A DNA stretch of 9,136 bases from a virus. Its lineage: Duplodnaviria > Heunggongvirae > Uroviricota > Caudoviricetes. How positions within the stretch are numbered: the stretch's first letter is position 1; each line of letters begins with the position of its first letter. The notes below the pieces were generated by a model, which saw nothing but the letters and a program-made list of their open reading frames with translations, was not told the DNA's origin and did no database searches. The DNA lies in the IMG/VR virus record IMGVR_UViG_2713896770_000016, positions 1-9,136 of that record; one strand, written 5' to 3'. A program made the position numbers and the translations under genes. Below are positions 1 through 9,136 of this stretch, piece by piece.

Positions 1-2138
1 TCATCGGTCATAATGGCAGACTGCGCTTCACGTGATTGCTTCAGCCACCATTTAATGGTGTCACGATCAATGACTCCGCCAGCAGTTTCCAGATCGATAG
101 TCTTACTAAATTCCGGTCCCATATCTCCGGTTTGCGGATCGAAAAATATTGCACCTATTGAGATAATCGGGGCATCAGGATTTTTTCCCATGGTTTCAAG
201 GTCGATCATTAGATGGTCACACGTCCTGCTGGTGGATGTGATAACACGATGACCGTTCACCGTAATTAAGGGATCTGCCGTCTCGCCAGTTTCACTATCG
301 CTGGCGTGATCCTGAGCGCTGCCAGCATTCTCCTTGTGTGGATGTTCAGCGCCTTCCATTTTCTCCGAATCGTCTTCCTGAACTTCAACCTGGTTCTTGT
401 CATCGAATGTTTCCTGGTATGTTGCGTCGCCCATCACCGCACCACAATCAGGGCAGTTGCCACCGCCGGTCTGACCGCAGGCGGTGCAGACTTTTTCCAC
501 TTCCTGTTGCGCCACTGGTTCAGGCTGTTTCGTTTCTGGCTCGTTTTGTAACGCATTTGGGCTGTTTTGTTCCGCTTTCTGGTCGTTCTGTTCCGTTTCT
601 TGCTGGTTCTGGTTCACAGAATCGCGGGTTTCAATCCCCTTCACCCATTTCGGATCATTCGGGTCGCTAATCCCTGCAACAAATTCACCACGTGATGCGG
701 CGAGCAACTGATTGGCGTCAGGCTGGCTGATATTGGCTGCCTGCATAATTTTGTTTACTTCGTCAGCGGTAACTTTTACCGGTTCTGGCTGTGCGGTCGT
801 GTCAGATGCACCAGTATTTTGTTGTGAACCTGAGTATGTACTGTTTTTGCGGGCGAAATATTCTTCTTTCGTGATTTCAGTAGCCCCGGCAGCCAGCGCC
901 TTATCCAGACCAGAAAGTTTGTTTGCGCGACCGTATTTTTCGCCATCCTTGTCGGTGAAGAGGAAGTAGAACGGCCCCTCACGCTCTACAGATGGTTCGA
1001 CTTCCACTTTGCATTCGGTTTTTTCGTTGTCCGGAATTGCCGTTTCCACTGCATCAGTTTCTGGTACTGGCGACGAGAGAGTATCAGTTGCGCTCTGATT
1101 TGTTCCTTCATCTTCAAACACGCCCTTTGTAGTCAGGTATTCAGTAATGTATTTGTTCAGTGCCACAGGATCTTTGTGAATGTCGATCGGACGTTCACGG
1201 ACAAGGCCAAAAATAGTCTGGCGGTCGTAGCGAAGGGCATCAGGCTGTTTGCGCATCGATGCCGAGATACGCTTCCAGTCTTCGCGGTCGTTGTCGATAA
1301 CTTCATTTTTTGCCCAGCGATGGATGCTGCCGTCAATGTTTCCGGCATCCACATCACCAGGCCAGAGAGCGTAGGCCAGTTCGTCATCCAGTGTTTTCCA
1401 TGTCTGCTTATATTCGCGACGAATGACTGCAGTGACAGGGGGGATTTTTTCTGCTGAGTTTTCAGTGTGCTGTCGGTGGACTCTGGCGCGGGCGAGATCA
1501 ACAACAGACGTGTATTTTCCGGTTTCCTTGCGTTCACCTTCGCGACGTTTTTTCCAGATGCGCATTTCTGCCTGAATTTCGGGCCATTTGGCACCAGGCT
1601 TACATTTATGCTTAACCCACCCGATGGCATGCAGCTTAAGCTCCGGATACATGGCGTTAACTTCTGGCATTTTCATCAACGCTTCAACGATATGTCCGTC
1701 GAATGTTGCCATGTCTTCCTGCAACAATTCCTGCGCGCTAATCACCATATCAACGGTGATGTTTTCACATGTGTCGAACTTAACCATGACAGCGTTCTGT
1801 ACTTCAAGGGACAGTTTGTCAAAATTGACGTTCATCGGTTCGGATTCTGGTTCGACCGGAATAAAGGAAGCGGATTCCTCATCCCAGCGGTTTTCCTGCA
1901 TATATTCGGTATCCCAGGAGTCGATAGCAGGGCGGGGCATGCCGGGTTTATCCTCGCAGATAAGAAATTTATAAGCGCAGTCCTGAGCAGCCGGATATTG
2001 CTCCAGGAATTGCCAGGTAAATTTGGCACGGGCGCGGCGTTCGTCGCCAGCTTCAATGGCAGTGGCTACAGCAACTGCACCTTCTTCCTTTATTGCCTGT
2101 TCGTCCGGAATGGCGGCGCAAATAAAGACTTTACTCAT
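1..2138 (-). CDS. recE: RecE-like exodeoxyribonuclease VIII family protein, N-terminal ~712 codons; 3' end runs off the left edge of the window
   Basis: Minus-strand frame opens at ATG 2138-2136 (MSKVFICAAIPDE...) and stayed open in the stretches hand-checked (1-300, 1440-1500, 2100-2138). It is absent from the ORF track, consistent with having no in-window stop. The plus strand over the same span holds only short, mutually tiling shadow ORFs. GAGG lies about 10 nt upstream of the ATG. An internal segment ...LLAASRGEFVAGISDPNDPKWVKGIETRD... resembles what I recall of Rac RecE. No search was run. Confidence 0.7.
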   Translation of the reverse strand, partial: MSKVFICAAIPDEQAIKEEGAVAVATAIEAGDERRARAKFTWQFLEQYPAAQDCAYKFLICEDKPGMPRPAIDSWDTEYMQENRWDEESASFIPVEPESEPMNVNFDKLSLEVQNAVMVKFDTCENITVDMVISAQELLQEDMATFDGHIVEALMKMPEVNAMYPELKLHAIGWVKHKCKPGAKWPEIQAEMRIWKKRREGERKETGKYTSVVDLARARVHRQHTENSAEKIPPVTAVIRREYKQTWKTLDDELAYALWPGDVDAGNIDGSIHRWAKNEVIDNDREDWKRISASMRKQPDALRYDRQTIFGLVRERPIDIHKDPVALNKYITEYLTTKGVFEDEGTNQSATDTLSSPVPETDAVETAIPDNEKTECKVEVEPSVEREGPFYFLFTDKDGEKYGRANKLSGLDKALAAGATEITKEEYFARKNSTYSGSQQNTGASDTTAQPEPVKVTADEVNKIMQAANISQPDANQLLAASRGEFVAGISDPNDPKWVKGIETRDSVNQNQQETEQNDQKAEQNSPNALQNEPETKQPEPVAQQEVEKVCTACGQTGGGNCPDCGAVMGDATYQETFDDKNQVEVQEDDSEKMEGAEHPHKENAGSAQDHASDSETGETADPLITVNGHRVITSTSRTCDHLMIDLETMGKNPDAPIISIGAIFFDPQTGDMGPEFSKTIDLETAGGVIDRDTIKWWLKQSREAQSAIMTD

Positions 2139-2261
2139 TTTGTTTTAACCTCATGACAGATTTAAGGATGAACAAATCCCTGCCATTGCTGGCATATAAG
2201 AATCAAATCTGATGTATTCATTAAGCTGAATGTCGTATTGTGGCAGTTATTTTATTACTGC

Positions 2262-2483
2262 TCACCATGACTCTGCTTTTACAGGTAAACCATCACGACC
2301 AAGGAAGACTTTAATCATGGTTTCCTTAATACAGTGTTGTGTGGAAAAATCACGAATATAGAGCCGTTGTTTTTTAATGTTGTTTACCGAAGCAATATAT
2401 GTTCTTCCTTTATGAATAACATAATCACCGGGAGTCACGCACTGACGAGGAATCTCATCAGTTCCGAAGTGATGAGCAATCAT
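2262..2483 (-). CDS. kilR: KilR-like small protein (73 aa), putative cell-division inhibitor
   Basis: Track ORF 2262..2495 (77 aa). The internal ATG at 2483 is preferred because GGAG sits 6 nt upstream of it, whereas the 2495 ATG has no SD. The product [22 protein letters not shown]... is 73 aa, the length of Rac KilR, and lies immediately upstream of recE-like in the same orientation. The name rests on recalled similarity, not alignment. Confidence 0.5.
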
Positions 2484-2657
2484 AATTATCTCCATTTTTA
2501 CAAATGAACTTTGTTGATGCGGTGCCTGGTGCCTCCAGGTGACGTTAACCAGTTAACAATTAACGCCGGATACAGAGAACCCACCCATAACACTGTTTTT
2601 GGTTTTAACTGTTCCGCGTGCGCTCAGCCGCATTCACCGCATCACAAAACTCACTTT

Positions 2658-2715
2658 AAAAAGGGCGGCAGACCAGTCACGGAGTAAAACTGATACCGCC
2701 AAACGTCACCAGAAA
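2658..2715 (-). ncRNA. dicF: DicF-type sRNA (prophage-encoded, ftsZ-targeting family)
   Basis: Minus strand reads TTTCTGGTGACGTTTGGCGGTATCAGTTTTACTCCGTGACTGGTCTGCCGCCC followed by TTTTT. This matches the 53-nt E. coli DicF RNA as I recall it, apart from about 1 nt. It has a GC-rich 3' stem plus U-tail and occupies the same operon position as in Qin (after the ydfC-like gene, about 175 bp before the next gene). Confidence 0.7.
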
Positions 2716-3056
2716 ATTGATAACAGAGGGCGTTGCAGCGGGGTTGTCACTTAAGCGTATGGTCAACCTGACAACCCGGTGTCCTCAACGGGGGAAGGAA
2801 TAACCCCGCCATACTTACCGCCGCGCCATTTCGCGGATTGCCACAACCGGAAGCGCACGGTCGACGAAAATTTAACGACAGGCTATCTATGAACCAGCTA
2901 CCTCGCCGTGCGCTTTCGCGTTATGGTCTGACTTTTCAGGGAAATATCCTTTCAGTAAACTGTCAGTGCCGGATGCTCACCCGTGTCCGGCGCAAGCACT
3001 CCACCTCACCCGTGGAGAACTCCTTAATTACCAACCTTAGCTTCGTTGGTTAGCTA

Positions 3057-3275
3057 TTAACGCGGGTATGTAATCATTCTGGCAATGGTTAATGCCGCTG
3101 CTTTTTCCAGATTGGTGATATCCTGCTCCAGAGAGGACAGATTTTCAGCCTGCTTAGCCCTGACTTCATTAGCCCATTTCAGATCCTGCGCTGCATTAAT
3201 TTTCTGGTGCATCCACTCATAAAGTTCATCATTGGTATAGTCTGGCGCGATGATGACGGGTTCTCGTTTCTGCAT
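3057..3275 (-). CDS. YdfC-like small prophage protein (72 aa), function unknown
   Basis: Track ORF of 72 aa with GAGG 5 nt upstream of the ATG at 3275. Its size and position (third small gene after the repressor, before dicF) match ydfC of the Qin dicB operon. The sequence looks coiled-coil-like. Identity is inferred from context and length only. Confidence 0.5.
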   Translation of the reverse strand: MQKREPVIIAPDYTNDELYEWMHQKINAAQDLKWANEVRAKQAENLSSLEQDITNLEKAAALTIARMITYPR

Positions 3276-3304
3276 ACTGATTCCTCGCGGTGCTGTTTCG
3301 CTTA

Positions 3305-3433
3305 TCAGCCATTAGATTTTGCCGAACTGGAAAGCACCTGTTTAAATTCGTTGAAGCTGTGAGCTTCTTCGCCTTCGGCAAGGCCTTCGAAGTATTCTTC
3401 GTAAGCCTTTTCCATGATTGTGTCGAAATCCAT
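3305..3433 (-). CDS. YdfB/YdaG-like small prophage protein (42 aa)
   Basis: Hand-translated MDFDTIMEKAYEEYFEGLAEGEEAHSFNEFKQVLSSSAKSNG, with stop TGA at 3307-3305. The ATG at 3433 lies 1 nt after the stop of the upstream gene, suggesting translational coupling. The 42-aa acidic product matches the ydfB/ydaG family in size. The overlapping 69-aa track ORF 3229..3438 in another frame was rejected. Confidence 0.6.
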   Translation of the reverse strand: MDFDTIMEKAYEEYFEGLAEGEEAHSFNEFKQVLSSSAKSNG

Positions 3434-3434
3434 A

Positions 3435-3590
3435 TCACCCACCTGAATTTCTTTCCAGCCAGCGACGCGCTCCAGATTCGGTTTTAAACGTTTTGCTTTT
3501 GGTATACGTCATTGCGGTGAACGTACCGTACTGGTTGGGGAACACGCCACATACCAGAGATTCGCTGTTGCCAAGATCGATAGTATCCAT
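3435..3590 (-). CDS. YdfA/YdaF-like small prophage protein (51 aa)
   Basis: Part of track ORF 3435..3671. The internal ATG at 3590 has GAGG 5 nt upstream and gives MDTIDLGNSESLVCGVFPNQYGTFTAMTYTKSKTFKTESGARRWLERNSGG (51 aa, the size of YdfA/YdaF). A 78-aa version starting at 3671 is an alternative, also with a GAGG upstream. Confidence 0.6.
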   Translation of the reverse strand: MDTIDLGNSESLVCGVFPNQYGTFTAMTYTKSKTFKTESGARRWLERNSGG

Positions 3591-3775
3591 GCTGACCTCA
3601 TTTCCCCTTAACGCCGGGGTAGCGGAACAAAAACCTGCTGCATAGTTATTAAAGTTGAACCCTGCCGTCATGTTCTTACGCCTCGGGCTGGCTACTTAAC
3701 CCCTGACCACTGCCTGGTAACTCGAAGTATTGCCCTGCATTCTGTGGGGCGGGGTGGGTTGGTATGAAAAGAAGG

Positions 3776-3814
3776 ATACCCATAGGTATTTAAAAAGTAA
3801 ATACCCATGGGTAA
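3776..3814. promoter_or_regulatory. Operator pair downstream of the repressor gene (OL-like), probable control region of the leftward early operon
   Basis: Two 14-bp dyads: ATACC-CATA-GGTAT (3776-3789) and ATACC-CATG-GGTAA (3801-3814), centres 25 bp apart. The second contains the perfect 12-bp palindrome TACCCATGGGTA. They share the half-site with the operators at 4295-4347. Confidence 0.5.
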
Positions 3815-3855
3815 ATTTTTGCGGTGTCTTAACTGGTGACTAGTTGTTTGGTGAG

Positions 3856-4275
3856 CTATGATGCGTTTTGTGCTTTCTTTTTACGGATTTCTTCGTAGAT
3901 CATATTGTAATACTGTTTTTTCTCTTCAAGAGTTTTTAATAATTTATCCGCTTCACTTTCTGGCAGTTCGTCTAAGAGATCTAAAAAAATACGTTGTCGT
4001 GGCGTTAGAACCCTTGTTTCATAACTGGAGGCTGTGTTCGTTGATGATGAAACGATACCATCCATCCATCCCCGGGGTAACCCAAAGGACTCTTCGATAA
4101 TCTCCACCATATCATCAGCGATCCGTTTTTTTCCCTTTTTCCCCTCTGGGTACAACATTCTTGATACATAAGAAGGCTCGCGCCCGATCTTTCTGGCCAC
4201 GTTAACCGCTTTACCATCGCATTTCTCATCACGAATTTTGATGAGTTGCTGTCGTCTAAATTCATATTTGTCCAT
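3856..4275 (-). CDS. Prophage repressor, DicA/RacR-like HTH protein (139 aa)
   Basis: Track ORF. The N-terminal region has an HTH-like segment GKAVNVARKIGREPSYVSRML. The C-terminal LTPRQRIFLDLLDELPESEADKLL resembles the DicA C-terminus as recalled. It is divergent from a cro-like gene and flanked by palindromic operators. No SD precedes the ATG, so the mRNA may be leaderless. Confidence 0.8.
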   Translation of the reverse strand: MDKYEFRRQQLIKIRDEKCDGKAVNVARKIGREPSYVSRMLYPEGKKGKKRIADDMVEIIEESFGLPRGWMDGIVSSSTNTASSYETRVLTPRQRIFLDLLDELPESEADKLLKTLEEKKQYYNMIYEEIRKKKAQNAS

Positions 4276-4350
4276 AGGTAAATAATAGATGCGATTACCG
4301 CAAGGTAAACAACCTGTGGGTATTGACTTTTGTTTACCTGTGGGTATTCT
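4268..4350. promoter_or_regulatory. Divergent promoter/operator region (OR-like) between the repressor and cro-like genes
   Basis: Operators TTACC-GCAA-GGTAA (4295-4308), cAACC-TGTG-GGTAT (4310-4323) and TTACC-TGTG-GGTAT (4334-4347), plus a degenerate copy over the repressor start (4268-4281). Rightward promoter candidate: -35 TTGACT 4323-4328, 16-bp spacer, -10 TATTCT 4345-4350. Leftward candidate: -35 TTTACC (complement of 4304-4309), 16-bp spacer, -10 TATTAT (complement of 4282-4287), ending about 6 nt before the repressor ATG. Confidence 0.5.
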
Positions 4351-4375
4351 TTGCTGTGTTTACTAAGGAGTAGCT

Positions 4376-4657
4376 ATGGAAGAATTAAGAATATTTCTCA
4401 ATTCTCTTTCGTCAGATGAACAGCGTATGTTTGCATGCGAGTGTGGTACCAGCATCGGTTATCTAAGAAAGGCATTGAGTAAAGGTCAAGTGTTAGGGGC
4501 ATCGTTATGTGTCCTTATTGAGCGAGCCAGTAATGGTGAAGTTACACGTCAGCAACTAAGGCCTTTTGATTGGATGAATATTTGGCCCGAGCTGGAAGAT
4601 ACCAAAACGTTAACACAACCACTTTCTAGGAGCTTGATTCATGAAAATCAAGCATGA
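4376..4657 (+). CDS. Cro-like regulator, YdaS family (93 aa)
   Basis: Track ORF with AAGGAG 5 nt upstream of the ATG. HTH-like segment CGTSIGYLRKALSKGQ...ASLCVLIERASNGEVT. It is the first gene of the rightward operon, divergent from the repressor. Confidence 0.8.
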   Translation: MEELRIFLNSLSSDEQRMFACECGTSIGYLRKALSKGQVLGASLCVLIERASNGEVTRQQLRPFDWMNIWPELEDTKTLTQPLSRSLIHENQA

Positions 4658-5066
4658 ACACATCCGCATGGCGATGAATGCCTGGGCGCGTCCTGATGGC
4701 GAAAAAGTTCCAGCAGCTGGAATAACCCAGGCTTATTTTGAGTTGGGTATGACGTTCCCAGAACTGTATGACGACAGCCATCCGGAAGCCCTGGCTCGCA
4801 ATACCCAGAAAATTTTCCGCTGGGTAGAGAAAGACACCCCTGATGCTGTTGAAAAAATGCAGGCTCTGTTACCGGCGATCGAAAAGGCGATGCCGCCTTT
4901 GCTGGTGGCCCGTATGCGCAGCCACAGTTCTGAATATTACCGTGAGATCGTCGAACGGAGGGATCGGCTGGTGAAGGATGTCGATGATTTTGTTGCGTCA
5001 GCGGTTGTTTTGTATGACCAGATGAATCGCGGCGGCCCGGCAGGGAATGCTGTGGTGATGCACTAA
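4641..5066 (+). CDS. YdaT-family protein (141 aa), CII-like position
   Basis: Track ORF with AGGAG 8 nt upstream. It starts MKIKHEHI like Rac YdaT as recalled and is about the same length. It overlaps the preceding gene by 17 nt. Confidence 0.8.
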   Translation: MKIKHEHIRMAMNAWARPDGEKVPAAGITQAYFELGMTFPELYDDSHPEALARNTQKIFRWVEKDTPDAVEKMQALLPAIEKAMPPLLVARMRSHSSEYYREIVERRDRLVKDVDDFVASAVVLYDQMNRGGPAGNAVVMH

Positions 5067-5088
5067 AAGCACGGTGTTCGGGGGTTTT

Positions 5089-6051
5089 ATGAGCAGCAAG
5101 CTTCATGGTCTTGTCTGGGAAGGGTGCGCCTTCACCGGCATGATCTTATCCAGGGTGGCGGTTATGGCCCGTCTTGCAGACTACAGCAATGACGAGGGCG
5201 TGTCATGGCCTGCCATTGAAACTATCCGGCGTCAGATCGGTGCAAGAAGTGAATCCACAGTGAAATCGGCTATTGCAGAACTGGCGAAAGAGGGCTGGCT
5301 GACGAAGGAAGAGCGTAAGGTCGGTGGGCGTAATGTAAGCAATATCTATCGGCTTAATGTGGAAAAACTCGAAGCAGCTGCGGCGGCGGCGCGTGAGTCA
5401 TATAAACCGAAAAGAAAAATTAGCCCGGCAAAAAATGACCCGTTAACAGTTGACCCGTCAAATATTGACCCCTCAACGGTTGACCCGTCAAATTTTGATG
5501 GATCAACTGTTGATAAAAAACTGCCGATTAGGGGGGCGATGATTGACCCCGATCCGTCAGTATTAAAACCTGATCCGTCAGATAAAAGATCTTCTTGTCC
5601 GGACGCTTCGCAACCGGACCCGCAGACGGCTGAACAGGATTTTTTAACCCGACACCCTGACGCGGTTGTGTTCAGTGCGAAAAAACGCCAGTGGGGAAGT
5701 CAGGAAGATTTGGTGTGCGCACAGTGGATCTGGGGACGAATCGTGAGTCTTTACGAGCAGGCGGCCAGCTATGATGGCGAGATCACTAGACCGAAAGAAC
5801 CCAACTGGACAGCATGGGCCAATGACGTTCGCACAATGCGGATGCTGGATGGCAGAACTCACAGACAAATTTGTGAAATGTTTGGGCGTCTCCAGCGGGA
5901 TTCGTTCTGGGTAAAAAACATCATGAGTCCGGCAAAACTCCGGGAAAAATGGGATGAACTGGTTATCCGCCTGGGGCGTTCGCCTGCGCAGCGTTGCGTG
6001 AATCACATTTCTGAACCGGACACTGAAATACCGCCGGGATTCAGGGGGTGA
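5089..6051 (+). CDS. Phage replication initiation protein (O-like): N-terminal winged-helix DNA-binding domain, repeat linker, DnaT-like C-terminal region
   Basis: Track ORF 5074..6051, which starts at a GTG. I prefer the in-frame ATG at 5089, preceded by a G-run, though the start is uncertain by 5 codons. The N-terminus LSRVAVMARLADYSNDEGVSWPAIETIRRQIGARSESTVKSAIAELAKEGWL is typical of phage replication-protein HTH domains. It sits directly upstream of a DnaC-like gene and carries an iteron array inside the coding sequence. Confidence 0.85.
   Translation: MSSKLHGLVWEGCAFTGMILSRVAVMARLADYSNDEGVSWPAIETIRRQIGARSESTVKSAIAELAKEGWLTKEERKVGGRNVSNIYRLNVEKLEAAAAAARESYKPKRKISPAKNDPLTVDPSNIDPSTVDPSNFDGSTVDKKLPIRGAMIDPDPSVLKPDPSDKRSSCPDASQPDPQTAEQDFLTRHPDAVVFSAKKRQWGSQEDLVCAQWIWGRIVSLYEQAASYDGEITRPKEPNWTAWANDVRTMRMLDGRTHRQICEMFGRLQRDSFWVKNIMSPAKLREKWDELVIRLGRSPAQRCVNHISEPDTEIPPGFRG
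5435..5524 (+). repeat. Iteron array (about six tandem 15-bp repeats, TTGACCCGTCAAAT-like) inside the initiator gene; putative replication origin
   Basis: Direct repeats at about 5435, 5450, 5465, 5480, 5495 and 5510, each with an internal dyad TTGAC-cc-GTCAA, followed by an A-rich tract (5513-5520). Two further related copies (GATCCGTCAG) lie at 5551-5560 and 5572-5581. In the protein they encode a DPSxx pentapeptide-repeat linker. Confidence 0.6.
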
Positions 6052-6057
6052 CGTGTC

Positions 6058-6804
6058 ATGAAAAACATTGCGGCAGTTGGGGTTCTTGAACGTATTCGCA
6101 GACTTGCACCACAGGGGTCGGTTCCACCGTACCGGACGGTGGAGGAGTGGCGGGAATGGCAACTTGCTGAAGGACGAAAACGCAGCGAGGAGATTAACCG
6201 CCAGAATCGCCAGTTGCGGGTGGAAAAAATCCTGAATCGTTCGGGCATCCAGCCTCTGCACAGCAAATGCTCGTTTGCAAATTATCAGGTGCAGAACGAC
6301 GGGCAAAAATACGCGCTGAGCCAGGCCAAATCCATAGCTGACGAACTGATGACCGGGTGCACGAATTTTGTGTTCAGTGGTAAAACCGGCACCGGGAAAA
6401 ATCACCTTGCAGCGGCGATGGGCAACCGGCTGATGGTGAAGGGGCGCAGCGTGATTATCGTCACCGTGTCTGACGTCATGAGCGTGTTGCATGACAGCTA
6501 CGACAACGGCAAATCCGGGGAAAAATTTTTACAGGAGCTTTGCGGGGTTGATTTGCTGGTCCTGGATGAAATAGGCGTTCAGCGGGAGACGAAAAACGAG
6601 CAGGTGGTATTGCACCAGATAATTGATCGCCGGACAGCATCACTGTGCAGTGTCGGGATGTTAACAAACCTGAATCATGCCGCAATGAGTACGCTTCTTG
6701 GTGAGAGGATTATGGACCGCATGACCATGAACGGTGGTCGATGGGTGACGTTTAACTGGGATAGCTGGCGTCCAAATGTCAGCAATATGAGGGTTGTGAA
6801 GTAA
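6058..6804 (+). CDS. DnaC-like helicase loader (IstB-type AAA+ ATPase), YdaV-like (248 aa)
   Basis: Track ORF with AGGGGG about 9 nt upstream. Walker A motif FSGKTGTGKNHLAAA and Walker B motif LLVLDEIG. Same length as Rac YdaV as recalled. Confidence 0.9.
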   Translation: MKNIAAVGVLERIRRLAPQGSVPPYRTVEEWREWQLAEGRKRSEEINRQNRQLRVEKILNRSGIQPLHSKCSFANYQVQNDGQKYALSQAKSIADELMTGCTNFVFSGKTGTGKNHLAAAMGNRLMVKGRSVIIVTVSDVMSVLHDSYDNGKSGEKFLQELCGVDLLVLDEIGVQRETKNEQVVLHQIIDRRTASLCSVGMLTNLNHAAMSTLLGERIMDRMTMNGGRWVTFNWDSWRPNVSNMRVVK

Positions 6805-6825
6805 TTTTGTCCGGAGGAAATTTTA

Positions 6826-7596
6826 ATGGAAACCGTATCTGACGCACTGAAAGCACTGAAAAAAGCCTCTTCACATGTGGTGGCAGCTCGCCTTGGAATC
6901 AGTCGTGAAGAGGCTGTCAACGAGCTGTGGGAACTCAAAAGAAAAGGCGTCGTTGATAAAACTGGTCACACCTGGTTTCTGGCTGGCGAAGGTGAATCCC
7001 GGGTAACCGAAGAGCGGCCAGTAAAATCTGAAGCACAGGATATGCTGACCGGGGAGGTCGAACAAAAAGTTACCGCAGACATGATGATTGAGTTTATCGG
7101 TCAGGATGGGGCTAAAACGTGTGAGGAACTGGCGGGTAAGTTCGGTGTCAGTACTCGCAAGGTTGCTTCCACGCTGGCGGTGGTAACCGCAACGGGGCGG
7201 CTGGCACGCGTTAATCAGAACGGTAAATTTCGTTACTGCATGCCGGGCGATAATTTACCAGCAGAGCCGAAAGCCGCGCTGGTAACGGAAAGTGATGGTA
7301 AGGCCTTTCCTCAGCCAGCAGGTGCTGCGTTACCAGTCCGGGAAGCCGCAACACAGGAAGAAATTAAAACAGAAACTGTGGCGGACATTGTGCAGCCGTT
7401 GCCATCGTTTACCGAAACGCAAGCAGATGAGCTGATTTTTCCGTCCCTTCGCAGGGCAAACCTGGCGCTGCGCAGGGCGAAAAGTGATGTTCAGAAGTGG
7501 GAGCGAGTCTGCGCCGCGCTGCGGGAGCTGAACAAGCACCGGGATATTGTTCGACAGATTACTGATTCTTCCCGCCGTGTTGTATCGGAAAAGTGA
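6826..7596 (+). CDS. Hypothetical protein (256 aa) with two winged-helix-like modules
   Basis: Track ORF with GGAGG 8 nt upstream. Internally duplicated 50-60 aa segments (residues about 1-55 and 83-140) of the pattern hydrophobic-x-x-L-x-x-x-G-[IV]-S-x-x-x-[VA]. The C-terminal third is basic and helical. No family was recognised with certainty. Confidence 0.7.
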   Translation: METVSDALKALKKASSHVVAARLGISREEAVNELWELKRKGVVDKTGHTWFLAGEGESRVTEERPVKSEAQDMLTGEVEQKVTADMMIEFIGQDGAKTCEELAGKFGVSTRKVASTLAVVTATGRLARVNQNGKFRYCMPGDNLPAEPKAALVTESDGKAFPQPAGAALPVREAATQEEIKTETVADIVQPLPSFTETQADELIFPSLRRANLALRRAKSDVQKWERVCAALRELNKHRDIVRQITDSSRRVVSEK

Positions 7597-7611
7597 TTGC
7601 CGGAGGCGCTT

Positions 7612-8037
7612 ATGGCAAAAGTATTTACACAAGAAGAGCGGGAAAAAATTAAAGGGCAGGTTGTTGAACTTGTACGTCTGAGCGGTCGCGAGACGTTGCG
7701 GCAACTGGAAGCCAAGACAGGTGCGACAAGATATCTGATGAGTGTTCTCGCCAGAGAGCTGGTTGCCAGTGGCGATGTATACAACTCTGGTTACGGGTTA
7801 TTCCCGTCTGAACAGGCGCGTAAGGACTGGCAAAATGCTCGCAAAAAACTCTCAAGGGCAAAGGTGAAGAAACCTGCAGTGGTTGATCCGGACCTTATCT
7901 GGTCGTTACCAGACGGCGAAATACGCCGCTACGACAGGCGCCTGAATATAATCTGTCGCGAGTGCCGGAAGAGCGAAGCTATGCAGCGTGTACTGGCATT
8001 TTATCAAGGAAATGTTAGGTATTTTAGACGTTACTAG
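7612..8037 (+). CDS. Hypothetical protein (141 aa), N-terminal winged-helix-like module, C-terminal basic region
   Basis: Track ORF 7597..8037 begins at a TTG. I prefer the ATG at 7612, which has GGAGG 5 nt upstream. It starts 16 nt after the stop of the previous gene. The N-terminus resembles the modules of the preceding protein. Confidence 0.7.
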   Translation: MAKVFTQEEREKIKGQVVELVRLSGRETLRQLEAKTGATRYLMSVLARELVASGDVYNSGYGLFPSEQARKDWQNARKKLSRAKVKKPAVVDPDLIWSLPDGEIRRYDRRLNIICRECRKSEAMQRVLAFYQGNVRYFRRY

Positions 8038-8190
8038 ATTAAAGAGCATTAGTTCAGATGTGAATTGACATTTTCATGGCGCAGGGTAGAGCCAGCGTGG
8101 TTGTCCGCTTTGCGTCAAAACCAGATATTACCAGATTTAGACATATATTCCCGATAGCCCTGCTCTGATGCTACACTCTGTGCTATTTTC

Positions 8191-8877
8191 ATGACCCCAA
8201 TAAAAATATTTATGACTATTGCTGATTTCAAACGGCCTAAATTGGAGCTCCCAAACGGGGCAAACAAACTACTACTGCACTCTTGCTGTGCTCCATGTTC
8301 CGGTGAAGTGATGGAGGCGCTTCAGGCCTCGGGAATCGACTACACCATCTTTTTCTACAACCCGAACATTCATCCTCAGAAAGAGTATTTAATTCGTAAG
8401 GATGAAAATATTCGCTTTGCTGAACAACACGGCGTGCCGTTTATCGATGCTGATTACGACACCGACAACTGGTTTGAACGTGCCAAAGGAATGGAATGGG
8501 AGCCTGAGAGGGGGATCCGTTGTACCATGTGTTTTGACATGCGTTTTGAGCGGACAGCGTTGTACGCTGCTGAAAATGGTTTCAGTGTGATCAGCAGTTC
8601 ACTGGGCATTTCACGCTGGAAAAATATGCAGCAGGTTAACGAGTGTGGGCGGCGAGCTGTTGCGCATTATCCGGGTATGGTGTACTGGGATTATAACTGG
8701 CGCAAGCAGGGCGGCTCGTCCCGTATGATTGAAATCAGCAAGCGCGAAAAATTCTATCAGCAGGAATATTGTGGCTGTGTGTATTCTCTGCGCGATACCA
8801 ATCTACACCGCAAATCTCAGGGACGCCCTCTTATCAAAATTGGCCAACTCCACTACGGAAAAGAAGAGAAGGAGTGA
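8191..8877 (+). CDS. QueH-like (DUF208-type) putative Fe-S protein, possible epoxyqueuosine reductase homologue (228 aa)
   Basis: Track ORF. N-terminal [12 protein letters not shown] followed by FFYNPNIHP, and later RCTMC and EYCGCVYS cysteine motifs. I recognise this pattern as DUF208/QueH, not confirmed by search. It follows a 153-bp intergenic region with extended -10-like TGcTACACT (8169-8177) and TGcTATTTT (8181-8189). No SD precedes the ATG. Confidence 0.75.
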
Positions 8878-9136
8878 TTTTATGGATCACCTTTCTGATT
8901 GATTTCATATTGGCGAGGTGACGTGAGTTAAGTAGAATGGCTGCGGGTGCTTGAGGCTATCTGTCTCAGGCATGAACACTGAAAGGCAGATAGAGAAAAG
9001 CCCCAGTTAACATTTCGCGTCCTGCAAGACGCTTAACATTAATCTGAGGCCCAATCTATGTCTCACAAATGTAGGTTAGCCTCTTACGTGCCGAAAGGCA
9101 AGGGGAAGCAGGCTATTGTTAACACCAAGCTGTAAT

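Follow-up and report, generated by a model that had tools for sequence, protein, structure and literature searches.

The stretch of DNA analysed here (the window: 9,136 nucleotides, positions 1 to 9,136 of the IMG/VR virus record IMGVR_UViG_2713896770_000016) is probably the immunity and early region of an Escherichia coli lambdoid prophage. Its leftward operon appears to be an early operon of the type known from prophage Qin of E. coli K-12, in which kil, a gene of the FtsZ-inhibitor family, is likely to occupy the dicB-ydfD slot through classical lambdoid module exchange. Positions 1-9116 are 100% identical to the chromosome of the bovine E. coli strain F2_407_2_2 (NZ_CP074756), where the matching stretch lies within a lambdoid prophage that is inserted next to potC. 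The minus strand carries, in this order, a repressor-like gene, a putative promoter and operator region, ydfA, a ydfB-like open reading frame (ORF), ydfC, the small RNA (sRNA) DicF, a spacer, kil and an exonuclease gene (Table 1); in the identical genome, the excisionase and integrase genes come directly after the exonuclease gene.

The kil cassette and its Qin-type surroundings

The window was compared with the Qin and Rac prophages of K-12 by BLASTN, and identities were also computed per segment. Qin has the same gene order (ydfA-ydfB-ydfC-dicF-dicB-ydfD-ydfE), with 94-98% DNA identity from ydfA through the leader that precedes the inhibitor gene. Positions 2503-3628 match Qin at 96%; this match begins upstream of ydfA, takes in dicF and ends about 16 nucleotides (nt) before the dicB ATG. 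It resumes at 1372-2223 with 91% identity, starting directly behind ydfD and reaching the point where IS2 truncates the ydfE pseudogene. Similarity to Rac amounts to 82% over 2247-2668, which covers kilR and the sequence upstream of it. Since Qin-type sequence flanks kil on both sides, kil is a small cassette in place of dicB-ydfD, which fill approximately 400 bp in Qin. The operon is not a strict Qin-type dicBF operon, all parts being 88-98% identical save dicB-ydfD, which kil replaces; the immunity region, with its repressor and operators, is unrelated to that of Qin, and the window prophage is apparently complete, with integrase and excisionase genes, whereas Qin is cryptic. Nor is it a Rac-type early-left operon, as alignment to Rac is limited to kil, the leader (82%) and a part of the DUF1391 gene, and ydaE, racC, recE and recT of Rac are absent from it. 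An earlier reading made from the sequence alone (the sequence-only reading) had proposed a mosaic joint here, with a Qin-type ydfABC-dicF front end fused to a Rac-type kilR-recE back end, and had suggested that alignment to both prophages would locate the breakpoint. That alignment does place a genuine boundary between dicF and kil, at 2503, just before the ribosome-binding site of kil; the Rac-type back end has to be abandoned, as a second boundary at 2223 returns to Qin.

In three-way and seven-way alignments, the divergence between dicB-type and kil-type copies starts directly after TTCATT, about 20 nt before each start codon. A crossover at 2521-2525, considered from single-nucleotide differences to K-12 Qin and Rac, was rejected because the same sites vary in the Qin-type copies of loci L005 and L006; the crossover can be placed safely only within the interval that ends at the divergence point near 2503. 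On the downstream side of the slot, the conserved element with the hairpin TGCCAGCAATGGCA follows dicB-ydfD in Qin, kil in the window and, ahead of racC, kil-ydaE in Rac-type prophages. This element marks the right-hand limit of the exchangeable cassette.

The product of kil had been described as KilR-like, correctly so: it shares 81% identity with K-12 KilR along the full length, passes the NCBIfam model NF008465 'FtsZ inhibitor protein' (140 bits against a cutoff of 92, residues 1-73 of 73) and matches PHROG 294 (E 7.9e-33). A Pfam search gave no match, and BLASTP found no alignment to the 62-amino-acid DicB at E <= 100, which disposes of the alternative, raised at the same time, that the protein would align to DicB rather than to KilR. 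KilR was reportedly treated by Conter et al. in 1996. By family membership, Kil would inhibit FtsZ. An alternative start, ATG at 2495, would give a protein of 77 amino acids but overlaps the Shine-Dalgarno (SD) sequence, and the NCBI Prokaryotic Genome Annotation Pipeline (PGAP) also calls the 73-amino-acid form. The allele is 100% identical in phage Evi (LR597642) and E. coli strain CE0007a (L005), and 100% conserved in L005 and L007. Its DNA identity to Rac-type alleles is 80-82%, so it represents an old, distinct lineage and not a recent import from a K-12-like Rac. The RefSeq/PGAP product name of the gene, in NZ_CP074756 and others, is 'cell division protein FtsZ', a misnomer for the Kil inhibitor that has been propagated across many genomes.

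Upstream of kil and downstream of ydfA, ydfB and ydfC, the DicF sRNA already named in the sequence-only reading is confirmed on the minus strand at 2714-2663 by Rfam (74.2 bits against a gathering score of 48, E 2.4e-15, model positions 1-52 of 52). It is identical to K-12 DicF at 52 of 53 positions, and its 3' terminator, formed by the hairpin GGCGGUAUCAG...CUGGUCUGCCGCC and UUUUU, appears in the minimum free energy (MFE) fold. RNase III and RNase E processing generates the DicF species in Qin (PMC10448788), and by homology the precursor region of the window would hold the sites that yield the 190-nt and 53-nt species.

The slot of DicF is also occupied by apparently related sRNAs. K-12 Rac has KilS there (L002, 7411-7466, minus strand), which scores 39.1 bits on the DicF model, below the gathering score; the terminator stem GGCGG.AUCAG is common to both sRNAs and the 5' part differs. 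KilS has been confirmed by northern blot, and yncL is a listed target from RNA interaction by ligation and sequencing (RIL-seq) (PMC8175672). It looks like a seed-swapped relative of DicF that diverged in the same slot. A third variant, in a Rac-like prophage of E. coli Z1323CEC0004 (L004, 3899-3949), scores 28.6 bits; it keeps the DicF precursor sequence and terminator scaffold with a replaced 5' part, and the same leader and kil follow downstream. When DicF, KilS and the L004 sRNA were paired with the ftsZ leader using duplexfold, energies were not distinct from those of shuffled controls.

The exonuclease gene beyond the cassette had been called recE-like, an assignment that does not stand. 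The protein scores 275.5 bits on the RecE equivalog model NCBIfam NF007259, whose cutoff is 1269, over model positions 271-603 of 877, and BLASTP similarity to RecE is confined to a central, non-catalytic segment (residues 262-626 against RecE 278-592, 39% identity). Its C-terminus carries the Rv2179c-like 3'-5' exonuclease (DEDD) domain PF16473, and a BLASTN match of 91% nucleotide identity links window positions 1372-2223 to Qin ydfE. The 823-amino-acid protein is the intact form of the Qin ydfE pseudogene, Qin's copy being truncated by IS2. No recT partner adjoins the gene, the excisionase and integrase genes of the identical genome taking that place. The exonuclease (L001, 5528-7999) is itself chimeric, with a RecE-like centre that includes a Cys-rich CxxC...CxxC stretch and a DEDD domain that replaces the nuclease domain of RecE.

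In K-12 Rac, a KilR-family protein follows the same leader and SD region, with the sRNA terminator immediately 5' of the leader; kilR is followed by ydaE-racC-recE-recT and preceded by ydaG-ydaF-sieB, as against ydfABC in the window. Rac-like prophages in which a full DicF (75 bits), leader and kil follow one another as in the window exist in E. coli N5D43 (NZ_CP074750, L006) and O145 RM9872, for example. They have a Qin-type leader (97% identity) but a Rac-type kil, 80% identical in nucleotides to that of the window, and they continue with ydaE, a racC-like gene, recE, recT and ralR; their upstream genes differ from those of the window. The sequence-only reading had noted that it would be refuted if this gene order were standard in Rac-like phages, which is in part so: DicF-spacer-kil-ydaE-racC-recE-recT is found in L006, and K-12 Rac has KilS in the slot. 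Because a full-scoring DicF precedes kil in this Rac-like prophage, the DicF-Kil pairing is not unique to the mosaic of the window.

The leader RNA between DicF and kil

The spacer between dicF and kil, previously given as 175 bp, is indeed present and measures 179 nt (2484-2662); the hairpin CCTGG-N5-CCAGG noticed within it also exists, at 2525-2539 and hence six bases off from the 2531-2545 first proposed. This motif occurs once in the window, with 0.01 matches expected by chance. As RNA, CCUGG-AGGCA-CCAGG (2539-2525) lies inside an invariant 22-mer, UCACCUGGAGGCACCAGGCACC (2542-2521). Because the whole leader is conserved and structured, the hairpin is one conserved stem of a larger RNA and not an isolated element.

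The sequence from the sRNA terminator to the inhibitor gene is common to Qin and Rac in the three-way and seven-way alignments. Its ends form a closing helix, a 28-nt inverted repeat of 20-28 bp with a duplex energy of -32 kcal/mol, which begins directly behind the DicF U-tract and ends shortly before the kil SD; in kil types it reaches closer to the SD than it does in dicB types. The 251-nt stretch 2720-2470 has an MFE of -86.9 kcal/mol (z -4.49). For 11 copies, including loci from Pseudescherichia, Scandinavium and Klebsiella and a soil metagenome-assembled genome (MAG), RNAalifold gave 43 consensus pairs, 12 of them with compensatory changes; 97.5% of cells were paired, none of 500 shuffles reached the observed values, and slid registers gave at most five such pairs.

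The leader resembles STnc100 (RF02076), a prophage-associated sRNA family related to PasD. Positions 2510-2647 score 37.7 bits on its model, against a gathering score of 47, and Rfam gives sub-threshold STnc100 matches for this spacer in Qin, Rac and related loci as well; a colinear leader homologue in Pseudescherichia (L016) scores 47.8 bits, and canonical STnc100 copies among the matches listed score 68-138 bits. The leader and STnc100 have in common the invariant core UCACCnGGAGGCACCnGGCACC, the GGUGAAU junction, the closing helix and the order of hairpins. They differ in the second hairpin (GCG.../...CGC in the leader and CCCCC.../...GGGG in STnc100), in the closing helix (20-28 bp versus about 6-9 bp) and in context, the leader being inside an operon between an sRNA terminator and an ORF whereas STnc100 stands alone. 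When the hairpin core TCACCNGGAGGCACCNGGCACC was scanned in one genome per species, at least 120 stretches (L008-L127) were recovered from many genera of Enterobacterales. For the 113 distinct elements among these listed matches, the variable pair of the core hairpin is always Watson-Crick (G-C in 99, U-A in 13 and A-U in one), and the closing-helix pairs beside the invariant GGUG/CACC are canonical in 112 and 109 elements, respectively, with frequent exchange between U-A and C-G. Over five variable pairs, 444 of 565 cells pair, compared with 334 +/- 8 in shuffles. Between DicF and dicB in Qin and between kilS and kilR in Rac lies what is predicted to be one and the same covarying structured RNA, of the STnc100 family. 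The core sequence had a sole match in full-text papers, a PCR primer for STnc100.

Several further observations concern these elements. Among the matches listed, STnc100-type elements with the invariant 22-mer often occur several times per genome, with two within 500-650 bp in L042, L053 and L076, and an intrinsic terminator directly follows the element in L019, L020, L039 and L123. In Klebsiella and Raoultella (L048, L052, L063, L099, L100), a well-conserved STnc100 subgroup precedes a probable outer-membrane porin gene by about 100 nt. In Shigella flexneri (L025, 3122-3424) and E. coli (L105), the leader is followed by matches to IsrK (61.5 bits) and the C4 antisense RNA (75.7 bits) with no protein gene, which may represent a further type of cargo for this leader. 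In the 5' region of DicF, nine bases (2702-2710, GGUGACGUU) are perfectly complementary to the leader sequence AACGUCACC (2538-2546), which overlaps the core's invariant UCACC; by chance alone, 600 nt would contain about 0.7 such 9-mers. DicF may pair with the leader of its own operon through this 9-mer, or the match may mean nothing. A function of the leader as a put-like processive antitermination element was also considered, and evidence for it was not found; lying behind the DicF terminator, the leader could have no effect on it.

Other features of the window

The repressor-like gene and its surroundings contain several copies of the palindrome TACCnnnnGGTA, with seven sites in the window compared with 1.5 expected. 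Five of them form two groups, two sites to the left of the repressor gene (3777-3813) and three at 4296-4346, between the repressor and cro-like genes. These clusters resemble the classical OL/OR layout, presumably serving a repressor that has no Pfam match, and the left group coincides with the putative early-left promoter. On the plus strand, the window encodes a cro-like gene, a YdaT-family gene, replication genes, a QueH homologue and a hok/sok locus. Within the replication-initiator (O-like) gene, 15-bp periodic TTGACCCGTCAA-like repeats (5415-5490) look like origin iterons and encode the repeated VDPS motif of the protein. The QueH homologue, a full-length epoxyqueuosine reductase of 228 amino acids (8191-8877) between the replication genes and hok/sok, is an unusual tRNA-modification gene for a lambdoid early-right region. 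A Sok antitoxin RNA was identified at 8945-9117 (115.6 bits) and the adjoining gene is annotated hokD in the identical genome; the prophage therefore carries a type I toxin-antitoxin locus.

Table 1. Coordinates of the leftward operon and associated elements in the window
Feature	Position	Strand	Details and basis
Exonuclease gene, first 712 of 823 codons	1..2138	-	ATG at 2138, runs off the window; full-length PHROG 2082
Right-flank element, 35 nt, hairpin TGCCAGCAATGGCA at 2181-2194	2162..2196	-	alignment
kil cassette, about 280 bp, no Qin homology	2224..2503 (approx.)	-	Qin match stops at 2503 and restarts at 2223
kil, 73 amino acids, FtsZ-inhibitor family	2262..2483	-	stop 2264-2262; SD GGAG 2493-2490, 6 nt upstream of the start
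Predicted structured leader, divergent STnc100 member	2497..2662	-	closing-helix arms 2662-2635 / 2524-2497
DicF sRNA with intrinsic terminator hairpin and U-tract	2663..2714	-	Rfam RF00039
DicF precursor region	2715..3056	-	97% identical to Qin
ydfC, 72 amino acids	3057..3275	-	97.7% to Qin
ydfB-like small ORF, 42 amino acids	3305..3433	-	annotation and Qin comparison
ydfA, DUF1391, 51 amino acids	3435..3590	-	annotation and Pfam
Putative early-left promoter/operator	3777..3813	-	two TACCnnnnGGTA palindromes around candidate -35 TTTACT / -10 TATCCT
Repressor-like gene, 139 amino acids	3856..4275	-	PHROG 5736 transcriptional regulator; weak match to the C-terminus of DicA

Origin, distribution and working of the DicF-kil operon

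The distribution of the arrangement was counted among 5,426 complete E. coli genomes. The Qin arrangement dicF-dicB-ydfD (at least 80% covered) is present in 3,779 genomes, and kil with leader and dicF region, in any background, in 134, so that dicB-ydfD is about 28 times commoner than kil behind DicF. The exact arrangement of the window with a Qin-type exonuclease gene was found in 55 genomes, and the K-12 Rac-type kilS-kilR in at most 1,840 (an upper bound). The DicF-kil combination occurs in about 1-2.5% of complete E. coli genomes. Phage Evi, a record of 40 kb, and strain CE0007a contain the exonuclease-kil-leader-DicF-ydfC module as in the window, with two extra genes between ydfC and dicF. 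As the repressor, cro and integrase types around it differ, the module travels between phage backgrounds. A soil MAG (L121) carries DicF with a very divergent Kil.

It is plausible that the mosaic arose by homologous recombination within shared flanks, namely the STnc100-family leader of about 165 nt on one side and the 35-nt hairpin element on the other. Because the cassette boundary coincides with the 3' end of the leader helix, the lineages stay homologous up to the ribosome-binding site, and the leader is therefore a natural substrate for homologous exchange of cargo. With DicF, KilS and the L004 variant in one slot and differing cargos in the other, both sRNA seed and protein cargo vary around a constant leader.

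The roles of DicF, DicB and KilR have been described, as has read-through past DicF in Qin (PMC10448788, PMC5069750). The repressor-controlled promoter of Qin lies upstream of ydfA, DicF ends at its own terminator, and a longer transcript reads through to dicB-ydfD; DicF is excised by RNase E together with RNase III, the latter cutting upstream of the sRNA (PMC10448788). By analogy, derepression of the window prophage would produce DicF, which would block translation of ftsZ, and read-through of the terminator would produce kil mRNA, so that Kil would inhibit FtsZ assembly alongside DicF. DicF plus Kil may thus be a like-for-like functional substitute for DicF plus DicB, with the same two-level logic, an sRNA and a small protein both stopping formation of the FtsZ ring. 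RNase III may in addition cut the closing helix, which has the length that the enzyme requires and is a plausible substrate for this reason; such a cut would separate DicF from the kil message, release the leader and shorten the 5' untranslated region of kil. The spacer had earlier been thought to contain an RNA processing site in its CCUGG-AGGCA-CCAGG hairpin; if a processing site exists, the 20-28-bp closing helix is plausibly the better candidate. A broader proposal, which we advance only tentatively, is that the spacer is no passive linker but a conserved STnc100-family RNA whose long closing helix would be cut by RNase III. The cut would release a second stable RNA from the operon, separate DicF from the downstream message and set translation or stability of the inhibitor that follows, and the same element would provide a homology block around which the sRNA seeds (DicF, KilS and the third variant) and the cargos (dicB-ydfD, kil, kil-ydaE and others) would be shuffled independently.

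Some points weigh against the interpretation of the operon and its leader given here. The leader falls under the Rfam gathering score for STnc100, and the covariation test used 11 related sequences, from whose alignment the structure itself had been derived. For the dicBF transcript, the one RNase III site on record is that upstream of DicF, and no cleavage site in the leader is reported in two RNase III papers and the paper on dicBF regulation (PMC10448788). Expression of the operon and RNA processing in this prophage are deduced from its sequence and from the Qin literature, and the protein on which tests were made, K-12 KilR, differs from the kil product by about 19%. The sequence is compatible with either direction of the swap, from dicB-ydfD to kil or from kil to dicB-ydfD, and frequency and distribution do not settle it.

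This last point gives some room to the view, possible though less likely, that the sRNA-leader-kil arrangement is the older one, dicB-ydfD being the incoming cargo, and that the window lineage never had dicB. It would agree with kil standing behind the same leader in Rac-type prophages, with the weak DicF match of KilS and its common terminator stem, with the full DicF and kil beside a complete Rac recET module in L006, with the full DicF and divergent Kil of the soil MAG, and with a closing helix that reaches further towards the SD in kil types; the 28-fold excess of dicB-ydfD behind DicF, in a comparison that is unrooted, speaks for the opposite polarity. The single fusion of the sequence-only reading, with Qin ydfABC-dicF in front and Rac kilR-recE behind, has become very improbable. 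The KilR family membership of Kil, the 82% alignment of 2247-2668 to Rac and the central segment that the exonuclease has in common with RecE speak for such a fusion, but from 2223 onwards the sequence is again Qin-like, throughout the exonuclease gene (91% to ydfE), which has a DEDD nuclease domain in place of that of RecE and fails the RecE model; ydaE, racC and recT are absent, with xis and int directly next, and the kil allele reaches just 80-82% DNA identity to Rac alleles. It is scarcely credible that the joint arose from an error of assembly or annotation, or that it is a decaying remnant whose kil is dead. Such a remnant seemed to be indicated by a PGAP pseudogene, 'DicB, incomplete', at 2510-2593, but this was rejected as a trace of dicB, being the shared leader read as protein: in Qin, a GTG ORF runs in frame through the leader into dicB, and in the window the same frame stops at TAA. 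Moreover, a complete genome matches window positions 1-9116 without a difference, 55 independent complete genomes and the phage Evi record contain the same module, and the kil ORF is intact, has an SD and is fully conserved in L005 and L007.

A Qin-type operon with kil in the dicB-ydfD slot thus remains the probable explanation, and as such the DicF-kil mosaic is a further case of known lambdoid modules being combined, and public genomes as well as a sequenced phage already contain it. The STnc100 family, to which the leader appears to belong, is widespread, and as K-12 carries both Qin and Rac, the results on the leader, STnc100 and KilS are testable in that strain. Prophages pair DicF with either of two unrelated FtsZ-directed proteins, DicB, which acts through MinC, or Kil, and this pattern fits selection for a two-level division block rather than for a particular protein.

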